Part shown: positions 45,962-48,265 of the stretch, piece after piece | Position numbering within the stretch: the first letter of the stretch is position 1 | Layout of the letters: each line of letters begins with the position of its first letter | NCBI GenBank assembly: GCA_963806835.1 | Contig: CAWEAR010000013.1 | Coordinates: 16,901-80,900 of the forward strand | Direction of reading: 5' to 3' | DNA length: 64,000 nucleotides | From: an uncultured delta proteobacterium | GTDB lineage: Bacteria; Desulfobacterota; Desulfobacteria; Desulfobacterales; CAWEAR01 | Made by a program: the position numbers and the translations under genes | Notes under the pieces: model-generated | The model's database searches: none | What the model saw: the letters and a program-made list of their open reading frames with translations, nothing else | Told to the model about the DNA's origin: nothing

Positions 45962-48265
45962 ATGAAAAAAGCATTAATTACCGGAATAACCGGACAGGAC
46001 GGAGCGTATCTTGCAGAATTTCTGCTTAAAAAAGGATATGAAGTTCACGGCATCAAACGCCGTGCATCATCATTTAACACAGGTCGCGTAGATCATCTTT
46101 ATAAAGATGTTCATGAAAAAGAAGTACGTTTTTTTATGCACTATGGCGACCTTACAGATTCAACAAATCTTATCCGTATTATTCAAATGGTGCAGCCGGA
46201 TGAAATTTATAACCTTGCCGCGCAGAGTCATGTCAAAGTCTCTTTTGAAACACCTGAATATACAGCAAATTCTGATGCACTCGGTACTTTGCGTATTTTA
46301 GAGGCAATCCGCATTTTAGGGTTGGAGAAAAAAACCCGGTTTTATCAGGCGTCAACAAGTGAAATGTACGGCAAAGTTCAGGAGATTCCCCAGAAAGAGA
46401 CAACCCCTTTTTATCCGCGAAGTCCTTACGGAGCGGCAAAAGTTTATGCGTATTGGATAACCGTGAATTATCGTGAAGCGTATAATATGTTTGCGTGTAA
46501 CGGGATCCTCTTCAACCACGAAACTGTTGCTGATTTTATGCCTATGATATTCAGAATGGGTGAAAGTGGTAAAATAGACATTAAACCGATTTCAGAAATC
46601 GTAAAATATCAAACAATTGAAAACAAAATTTCAATTGATGAAGATAAAAAAGAATATCAGACAGGTACAGTAGAAACCGATTTATATGTATGGGATGCGG
46701 ATGGATGGACAAAGGTTAAACATTTTTCAGCTTATCCCCATGATATTGAAAATGACAACAAAAAGCCGATAATTGTGAATAGCAGGAATGCCTGTTTTGT
46801 TGCTACATCTGAGCATGTTGTCATTATGAAGGATAAGGGTGAAAAAAAAGTCGGAGATTTAAAAATCGGAGACAGAGTTAATTTGATAGAATATCCGACA
46901 GACTATAAAAAATATGATGAAATAACCTTAAAAGAGTCTGAATTACTTGGATTTATTATCGGTGACGGATATTACAGTCAAAAAAATAATAAATTGCGAT
47001 TAATAGGCAAGGATTTAGATAAGTTGAAATATTTTGTCAATATTTGGGAAAGTGAATTGGATGGAGATTCTTCTTACAGGCAGGTGCCTTCGGGATTCAA
47101 TAAAGAAAGTCTTGTTTGGCAAGTAGATTTAACCAAAAATAAAAAATGGATAAAACAATTTTCAATTTACGACGAATACGGCAAAAAAAGAGTTCCTTAT
47201 CAGATATTAAATAGCTCTGAGGAAATAAAACTTGCATTTTTAAGAGGTTATTACAAAGCAGACGGATTGGACTCCAAACACTGCCGATATGAATTCAGCA
47301 ACATAAAAACAAATTCAGCGACTTTAGCCGCAGGATTAATCTTTTTGCTGAAAGAGGTGACAAATCAGGAATATAACATAACGGTAGAAGAGCGGATAAG
47401 AGAATCGGATAAAAGAAGTTTTTACTACTCTGTCAACCTGTTAAGTAATTCAGATAAGGGTAATAACCATAAAAATTCAGCAGATAAAAGGGATAAGGTT
47501 TTAGAACTGTCGGAGTCAGGCATATCCCAAAGAGGGATACAGAGAGAAACAGCTATAAGCAGGACTTTTATAAGAAAAGTTCAGAATGGATATAATCCGT
47601 CAGATAATCATCATTTATCAAAAGATAAAAGCGAAATAAAGAAACTGATAGGCTTTGATGAATATAACGGATGGTTTTATGACTTGGAAACAGAAAGCGG
47701 CACATTTCATGCAGGTATCGGTCAGGGGCATGTTCATAATTCTCCTATACGCGGCGAGACCTTTGTTACAAGAAAGATTACAAGAGCAGTTGCGCGTATC
47801 AAATTAGGATTACAGGATGATATTTATCTTGGAAATTTGGATTCCAAACGGGACTGGGGATTTGCACCTGATTATGTCCGGGGAATGTGGATGATACTTC
47901 AGGCAGATGAACCTGATGATTTTGTTATTGCCACCGGAGAATCTCATTCTGTCCGTGAATTTGTTGAAAAATCTTTTGAAGAGATTGGAATTCATTTGAT
48001 ATGGGAAGGTTCAGGCGTGGATGAGACTGGAAAAGATGCTGCCACAGGCAAAATTCTTGTTCGGATTGATCCCCGATATTTCAGACCCACAGAGGTTGAA
48101 TTTCTGCTTGGAGATCCCTCAAAAGCAGGAGAGAAACTCGGATGGAAGCCGAAAGTCTCTTTTCATGAGCTTGTTAAGATAATGGTGCGTGATGATTTAA
48201 AAGAGGCGGAACGGGATCAGCTATGCAAAAGAGAAGGTTTTCCGACATATAATCATTTTGAATGA
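45962..48265 (+). CDS. gmd: GDP-mannose 4,6-dehydratase precursor containing an intein
   Basis: Exteins (residues 1-187 and 594-767) contain [28 protein letters not shown] and [10 protein letters not shown] | [17 protein letters not shown]...[11 protein letters not shown]. Joined they give 361 aa. Confidence 0.9.
   Translation: [767 protein letters not shown]
46523..47740 (+). mobile_element. Intein (406 aa) with a LAGLIDADG homing-endonuclease domain
   Basis: Inserted between E187 and S of the conserved NHE|SP motif. It has block B [17 protein letters not shown] motifs [12 protein letters not shown] and [13 protein letters not shown], and C-terminal [15 protein letters not shown]...GHVHN followed by Ser+1. 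The first residue is Thr (ACT at 46523-46525). Confidence 0.85.

Follow-up and report, generated by a model that had tools for sequence, protein, structure and literature searches.

Can an intein begin with threonine in nature, and would such an intein still splice itself out of its host? The question is raised by a gene for GDP-mannose 4,6-dehydratase (hereafter GMD) carried by an uncultured, Desulfobacteraceae-like (sulfate-reducer-like) delta proteobacterium on contig CAWEAR010000013.1, within a 64,000-nucleotide stretch of DNA that we refer to as the window. A first-pass annotation, made from the letters of the window, had proposed that this gene is interrupted by a LAGLIDADG intein with Thr in place of the usual first residue, Cys or Ser. 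The analysis presented here makes it likely, in our judgement, that the insert is a mobile, self-removing class 1 intein with Thr at position 1 (Thr1), that it was acquired horizontally, and that it carries a nested endonuclease as well as a helix-turn-helix (HTH)-like module.

An insert within the active-site motif of GMD

The GMD precursor is encoded by a single open reading frame (ORF) of 767 residues including the intein, with no internal stop (45962..48265, + strand, stop codon included). The host enzyme was identified as GMD by the NCBIfam equivalog model for gmd, TIGR01472 (612 bits), and by the Pfam model GDP_Man_Dehyd (E=3e-159), both of which match the ORF in two stretches with a break at residue 188. 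Joining residues 1-187 to residues 594-767 gives a 361-residue protein in which NHESPIRG is contiguous, and which aligns to solved GMD structures with zero gaps over the junction (7kf3, 579 bits; E. coli 1db3, 553 bits). The first-pass annotation had described the same two GMD halves and the same joined product, and had proposed the structural alignment as a check; all three hold, with no gap at NHE|SP.

Based on these joined-extein alignments, the N-extein (GMD residues 1-187) occupies 45962..46522 and the C-extein (residues 188-361 of the spliced enzyme) occupies 47741..48265, both on the + strand. The 406-residue intein between them (46523..47740, +), delimited by homology, fold and profile evidence, runs from Thr1 to His405-Asn406. 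At the 5' junction the DNA reads AAC CAC GAA then ACT GTT GCT GAT, and the ACT codon at 46523..46525 (precursor residue 188) confirms the Thr that had been noted there. At the 3' junction the DNA reads CAT GTT CAT AAT then TCT CCT ATA, with the break at 47740/47741. Read from the alignments, these boundaries are unambiguous, because Glu(-1) differs from the terminal Asn of the intein and because only a junction at NHE|SP rebuilds the invariant GMD motif; shifted boundaries were rejected on this latter ground. By the same alignments, the insert falls in frame inside ILFNHE|SPxRG, an invariant motif of the GMD active site. The role of the NHES loop is indicated by its sequence invariance and by what is generally known of extended short-chain dehydrogenase/reductase (SDR) enzymes.

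The insert has the motifs and predicted fold of a LAGLIDADG intein

When the insert alone was used as a database query, every one of the 58 proteins retrieved proved to be a GMD with a homologous insert in the identical place. A profile built from this family matched the PDB sequences of the Pyrococcus VMA intein (3e-16), PI-PkoII from PolB (7e-14) and the MjaTFIIB intein (1e-10), and in the family-profile alignment blocks F and G match those of solved inteins residue for residue. An AlphaFold 2 (AF2) model computed from a 30-sequence alignment reached a mean pLDDT (predicted local distance difference test) of 91 and a pTM (predicted template modelling score) of 0.86. The top PDB matches of this model in Foldseek were PI-TkoII (2cw7, E=1.7e-13) and PI-SceI (~1e-9), and it also matched the mini-inteins VidaL and Ssp DnaB (probability 1.0 for both), Mtu RecA, and the free-standing LAGLIDADG enzymes I-SceI, I-Tsp061I and I-WcaI.

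The splicing motifs, all on the + strand, could be located one by one. The directly read ACT codon falls where inteins have their N-terminal splice nucleophile, and block A begins with it. It is followed by His73 within SAYPHD (46739..46741), which conservation and alignment suggest as a candidate equivalent of the NX-motif histidine discussed below, and by the conserved block B (N3) core T95-S-E-H98 (46805..46816). Towards the C-terminus, block F (C2) covers residues 384-398 and includes Asp387 at position F:4 (47672..47716), as placed by alignment to the VMA, PI-PkoII and TFIIB inteins. The conserved block G, GQGHVHN with His405 and Asn406, together with Ser+1 (47741..47743), spans 47720..47743. 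The set of class 1 residues in the insert is thus complete: Thr95, His98, Asp387, His405-Asn406 and Ser+1.

Between the two splicing segments lies a predicted LAGLIDADG homing-endonuclease domain (approximately residues 126-312, 46898..47458, +), defined by its fold and by the Pfam model LAGLIDADG_3 (27.6 bits, cutoff 22.5), which is the sole intein-related Pfam model to score above threshold. Its two motifs are found at residues 141-152 with Asp148 (46943..46978, +) and at residues 237-249 with Asp247 (47231..47269, +). A three-helix HTH-like module at approximately residues 317-354 (47471..47584, +) separates the endonuclease from the C-terminal splicing segment; in the AF2 model its helices span positions 320-334, 339-346 and 350-357. 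The module has weak similarity to resolvase HTH domains (HTH_7, 13.6 bits), and the homologues P0016 and P0033 carry a precomputed PF02796 match. All of the elements that had been named from the sequence by eye, namely TxxH, two LAGLIDADG motifs, an HTH-like stretch (334-353), block F and HN|S, were recovered, and the homology, profile and fold evidence agrees with the original reading that the insert is, by sequence and by model, a LAGLIDADG intein at NHE|SP of GMD. A class 3 mechanism was considered and set aside, as residue 1 is Thr and the class 3 WCT triplet (Trp at B:12, Cys at F:4, Thr at G:5) is absent, the corresponding residues here being Val100, Asp387 and Val404.

Thr1 is a conserved trait of a clade

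Among the distinct inteins found at the GMD site, residue 1 is Thr in 59, Ser in 13 and Cys in 99. The 59 Thr1 sequences are diverse, with pairwise identities of 27-99% and a median of 45%, and the Thr is encoded by all four of its codons in 32 related loci (ACA 13, ACC 3, ACG 8, ACT 8), ACT being the one used in the window. We assessed whether Thr1 marks a clade using neighbour-joining trees from which the residue-1 column had been removed, scoring an unrooted split over 100 bootstraps. In 97 of the 100 replicates, all 44 of the 44 Thr1 inteins analysed fell on one side of a split together with at most two Cys1 inteins (P0067 and P0071), and the Ser1 inteins P0036, P0045 and P0068 joined the Thr1 side in 92-95 of 100. 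On that side of the split, residue 1 is Thr, Ser or, in the two cases named, Cys; no residue lacking a nucleophile (Ala, Gly or Pro) was seen. Judged from these alignments and trees, Thr1 is a real and conserved trait, clade-wide and under selection, and the clade of GMD-site inteins that it marks is old and spreads horizontally. It is not an assembly error, because Thr is found throughout the clade with synonymous codon turnover over many independent assemblies.

Conservation was counted over 150 GMD-site inteins, of which 44 are Thr1 and 92 are Cys1. Within the Thr1 group, His98, the Asp at F:4, the His at G:6, the Asn at G:7 and Ser+1 are each retained in 44/44 sequences and Thr95 in 43/44, and His98 is invariant in all 150. 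Both acidic residues of the LAGLIDADG motifs are kept in 33/44 Thr1 inteins and in the window, and the HTH-like module is present in 17/44 Thr1 inteins versus 2/92 Cys1 inteins. Some members of the clade have lost the endonuclease catalytic residues, or have shrunk to as few as 281 residues, and nevertheless retain their splice residues. From this pattern of decayed endonucleases beside preserved splice sites, which is that of a homing cycle, it follows that splicing would be maintained by selection on the host enzyme.

The Thr1 clade has a distinct active site

Ten alignment columns separate the two groups of alleles (Thr1/Cys1): Q46/T, A68/M, S69/T, Y71/T, P72/W, H73/N, P82/V, T280/L, S303/Q and F385/L. 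The most suggestive of these columns is position 73, where His is found in 43/44 Thr1 inteins versus 5/92 Cys1 inteins, and where Asn is found in 63/92 of the latter. A histidine in an 'NX motif' was described by Pasch et al. 2023 as confined to inteins with Ser1 and Ser+1 (or Thr+1) and absent from Cys1 inteins (PMC10189870). That His lies within hydrogen-bonding distance of Ser1, is essential in the three inteins that were tested, and is invariably preceded by Arg or Lys (PMC10189870).

Outside GMD, nearly all of the clade's closest relatives begin with Ser1 and are followed by Thr+1 or Ser+1, an example being the PolB intein YGD|S...HN|TDS. The S-x-Y-P-H of the Thr1 clade aligns with the [VI]x[RK]-H of these Ser1 relatives either exactly or 1-2 positions off, and the RH of MjaTFIIB lies three alignment positions from His73, in the same loop. 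Residue 72 is Pro in 84% of the clade, and Lys-His occurs only in two viral members, L086 and L096. We infer for the Thr1 clade a mechanism shared with the oxyester inteins, in which His73 would activate the Thr1 hydroxyl.

Differences were also observed in block G. The His at G:6, shared by all 44 Thr1 inteins, is replaced by Gly, Ala or Ser in 15/92 Cys1 inteins, and position G:4 is Trp in most Cys1 inteins and His or Arg in most Thr1 inteins. This hints that the C-terminal half of the active site is tuned differently in the two groups.

Occupancy of the GMD site and horizontal acquisition

The NHE|S site is filled in 79 loci of GTDB species-representative genomes, whose hosts include Chloroflexota, Cyanobacteria, Omnitrophota, Patescibacteria (the candidate phyla radiation, CPR), Planctomycetota, Acidobacteriota and a Woesearchaeota archaeon. 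It is filled in a further 33 IMG/VR contigs, with giant-virus metagenome-assembled genomes (MAGs) among them. A profile search of 1.84 billion representative sequences gave 381 matches at E<=1e-30; among the best 150 of these 381, approximately 70 are at the GMD site and the others are related inteins in different hosts. The first-pass annotation had remarked that GMD is not a classical intein host and had suggested looking for other occupants of the site. The remark stands in that GMD lies outside the replication and repair hosts, but the exact site proves to be commonly occupied. Thr1 inteins at the GMD site span bacteria, DPANN archaea and giant-virus contigs, and Thr1 was found in none of approximately 80 relatives outside GMD.

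Sixteen viral contigs in IMG/VR carry a Thr1 GMD intein (loci L080-L096), and these are mostly very AT-rich, at 21-44% GC. Among them are L087, on the 473,558-bp contig IMGVR_UViG_2706795120_000001, and two GVMAG contigs, L086 and L088. In the literature covered by our search, nothing was found on a giant-virus GMD intein. An intein in gmd has been mentioned for Thermosynechococcus (PMC9403480), and our locus L060, from that lineage, has Cys as residue 1. The host list of Novikova et al. includes UDP-glucose/GDP-mannose dehydrogenase, and GMD is absent from it.

Some GMDs and related enzymes carry further inteins. P0029 and P0049 contain, beside the NHE|S intein, a second and unrelated-looking one with Cys1 and Cys+1 (DWGHAKDY|C...VSGN|CEAM), so that at least two points in GMD accept inteins. 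In P0105, P0117, P0119, P0121 and P0140, related inteins with Ser1 and Thr+1 occur in the homologous loop of a different SDR enzyme (FNH|S...HN|TGPRRG), which suggests that inteins of this family have passed from the active-site motif of one SDR enzyme to that of a paralogue.

For the intein in the window, the evidence of transfer is compositional as well as phylogenetic. Its GC content is 0.334, lower than that of either extein part (0.408 and 0.419) or of the whole window (0.418), in keeping with the AT-richness that had been noted by eye. The joined GMD is 85-88% identical to intein-free, 361-residue GMDs of the Desulfobacteraceae, which include those of Desulfobacteraceae bacterium IS3, Desulfonema magnum and D. 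limicola, and the best 120 extein homologues are intein-free without exception (120/120). The closest relatives of the intein itself, at 54-59% identity, come from a Cellvibrionaceae MAG and from low-GC IMG/VR contigs. Because of the drop in GC, the intein-free extein homologues and the low identity and hosts of the nearest inteins, we conclude from sequence comparison that the intein was acquired horizontally, probably by homing, and the earlier proposal of horizontal acquisition is borne out.

A predicted splicing route and its alternatives

The definition of class 1 admits Ser1, Thr1 or Cys1 (PMC5222942), and the intein in the window would be expected to follow the four-step class 1 route with oxygen nucleophiles throughout. 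In the first step, the Thr1 hydroxyl would attack the carbonyl of Glu(-1) in an N-O acyl shift, assisted by Thr95 and His98 of block B, by Asp387 of block F and probably by His73. The N-extein would then be passed to Ser+1 by transesterification, after which Asn406 would cyclise with the assistance of His405, and an O-N shift would rejoin NHE to SP, giving the 361-residue GMD and a free 406-residue endonuclease. The latter is predicted to cut intein-less gmd genes near GGGATCCTCTTCAACCACGAA|TCTCCTATACGCGGCGAGACC and then to home into them. Splicing, the role of Thr1 as nucleophile, the role of His73 and the activity of the endonuclease are all points that we infer from sequence. The intein is probably splicing-competent, because the class 1 residues are kept in the clade, because splice residues outlast the endonuclease and because the exteins are intact. 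The chemistry of Thr1 is itself plausible, since the Tli Pol-2 intein with the mutation S1T is cited as splicing in PMC2807308.

Several observations weigh against splicing by a class 1 intein that relies on Thr1 and His73. The Pfam model Hint scores 13.3 bits on the insert, below its cutoff of 29.7, and neither Intein_splicing (PF14890) nor TIGR01445/01443 gives a match. The residue before His73 is Pro and not the Arg or Lys that is invariant in NX inteins, and in three of the clade's Ser1 inteins residue 73 is Asn, which blurs the association of Thr1 with His73. As read from the trees, this association is also largely one phylogenetic event. Finally, there may be local gene decay or assembly indel errors near gmd, because a neighbouring galE-like gene is frameshifted, and the genome may hold, outside the 64-kb window, another gmd copy that lacks the intein.

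The best of the alternatives is a route like that of class 2: as in the Ala1 inteins of KlbA, Ser+1 would itself attack the peptide bond between Glu(-1) and Thr1, and Thr would merely be tolerated at position 1. Class 2 inteins share the ordinary residues of blocks B, F and G, such that sequence alone cannot separate the classes (PMC2807308, PMC5222942). Conservation at residue 1 argues against this route: Thr is stable in 59/59 distinct Thr1 sequences despite codon turnover, and the only alternatives in or next to the clade are Ser and Cys, whereas a position with no need of a nucleophile should also show Ala, Gly or Pro, which are never seen. The clade also keeps the His that is linked with activation of the residue-1 hydroxyl. 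The beta-branched side chain of Thr makes it sterically less suited than Ser to act as a nucleophile, and this is a point in favour of direct attack by Ser+1. On balance we consider this route unlikely.

Slightly less probable again is that the intein of the window is defective or very slow, so that its gmd is an effective pseudogene or a conditional gene and GMD function comes from elsewhere. The frameshift in the adjacent galE-like gene would fit such decay, as would the lack of an adjacent fcl partner gene in the 64 kb visible. Set against this, the ORF is open over 2.3 kb, the splice residues and both endonuclease Asp residues are present, and the exteins are undecayed, with 88% identity to functional-looking GMDs and the gapless 579-bit match to 7kf3.

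The two remaining alternatives we regard as highly improbable. The first-pass annotation had allowed that codon 188 might be an assembly error, which would mean that ACT stands for TGT or TGC (Cys), or for TCT or AGT (Ser). There is a possible indel error 1.5 kb upstream, in galE, but approximately 50 of the closest relatives, from independent assemblies, all have Thr, written in four ACN codons, and the window also has the co-varying residues of the clade (Q46, S69, Y71, P72, H73, P82 and F385), so this option falls away. Equally improbable is an accessory domain that does not splice and belongs to a subfamily of GMD, for which the sub-threshold Pfam Hint, Intein_splicing and TIGR intein models could be cited, and against which stand the agreement with solved inteins in fold (HINT plus LAGLIDADG) and in profile, the canonical junctions, a position inside an invariant motif where an extra domain would disrupt the enzyme, and a sporadic distribution in which the closest relatives are intein-free.

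The results with curated hidden Markov models (HMMs) have a wider bearing. The first-pass annotation had proposed a Pfam run on the insert and had held that the lack of a Hint match would refute an intein. The run was only partly favourable, with LAGLIDADG_3 above threshold, Hint below it and Intein_splicing without a match, yet the fold and profile-to-PDB evidence is strong, and the proposed test misfires for this family. Weak matches of the insert to models of intein-containing DnaB and GyrA were obtained at ~2e-5. As the family is missed by the curated intein HMMs, intein censuses based on such models will undercount GMD-site inteins. A precomputed PF14890 match is found in 1/58 homologues, and the source annotation is plain 'GDP-mannose 4,6-dehydratase'.

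Relation to known inteins and novelty of Thr1

A splicing Thr1 class 1 intein, as we read the insert, is best compared with the Ser1 NX inteins (PI-TkoII, i.e. Tko Pol-2, 2cw7; MjaTFIIB, 5o9i; PolB16 OarG; PMC10189870), which provide its best fold and profile matches and its nearest relatives outside GMD. The GMD clade has the same TxxH, Asp at F:4 and terminal HN, and would share with them the oxygen nucleophiles at both junctions. In the clade, the strand that precedes block B ends in a His, a candidate counterpart of the NX histidine, which aligns with the [RK]-H of the NX inteins or lies within 1-2 positions of it. They differ in that the GMD clade has Thr1, Pro-His (in SxYPH) and a sugar-nucleotide dehydratase as host, whereas the NX inteins have Ser1, Arg-His or Lys-His, and hosts in replication and transcription.

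A second comparison is with the Cys1 alleles of the GMD site, including that of Thermosynechococcus (L060, PMC9403480) and many from Chloroflexota and Cyanobacteria. These share the insertion point and Ser+1, and their splicing and LAGLIDADG domains are homologous to those of the Thr1 inteins at 25-35% identity. They differ in having Cys1, Asn73 and a Trp at G:4 (His or Arg here), and they usually lack the HTH module, measuring approximately 345 residues as against approximately 390-406 in the Thr1 inteins. The S1T variant of Tli Pol-2 likewise has Thr at position 1, but as a laboratory mutation of a Ser1 intein, whereas in the GMD clade Thr appears to be naturally selected. Class 2 (KlbA, Ala1) and class 3 (MP-Be DnaB, WCT) inteins also depart from the Cys1/Ser1 rule, and do so without a nucleophile at residue 1. 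Unlike in class 2, residue 1 here is a conserved Thr for which the only alternatives are Ser and Cys.

Tori et al. wrote in 2010 that no natural intein with Thr1 had been observed, and later reviews either define class 1 by Ser1, Thr1 or Cys1 without giving examples, or refer to an 'N-terminal Cys or Ser'. We found no later report of a natural Thr1 intein in a full-text literature search, with most subscription journals outside its scope, and we put the chances that a natural Thr1 intein is truly unreported at about even. A broader and more tentative interpretation, to which we give somewhat less than even weight, is that the Thr1 clade at GMD is the first recognised natural lineage to start splicing by way of a Thr hydroxyl. 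It would have arisen from a Ser1 ancestor with a tuned active site (His73 in SxYPH, Q46, S69, Y71, P82 and F385), and would have moved between bacteria, DPANN archaea and giant viruses. Under this interpretation, Thr1 would have gone unobserved because the standard intein models miss the clade.

If functional, the Thr1 clade would close the gap between the definition of class 1 and what has been observed. If splicing is truly efficient, it would provide a new cysteine-free and redox-insensitive intein chemistry, and the clade adds cysteine-free candidates for protein engineering. The Cys1, Ser1 and Thr1 inteins of this one site form a natural allelic series in which the activation of the residue-1 nucleophile, including the part played by the NX histidine, can be tested. 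The occupancy data also present the active site of a sugar-nucleotide enzyme as a major homing site for inteins, common to cells and giant viruses.

Genomic neighbourhood

The neighbours of gmd are those of an ordinary bacterial chromosome, and include cadherin/Ig-repeat surface proteins, a Polysacc_synt_2 dehydratase, the galE-like gene, a PAS-HD-GYP response regulator and GlnE. No fcl partner gene lies adjacent to gmd. The galE-like epimerase gene upstream of gmd (44818..45808, +) is split into two frames, 44818..45099 and 44966..45808, by a 1-nt frameshift near 44965-44985, which marks either a pseudogene or an assembly indel error. Further upstream, a perfect (GAGT) x 27.5 microsatellite occupies 43790..43899, where it gives rise to HSLT/LTHS repeats in a spurious minus-strand ORF.

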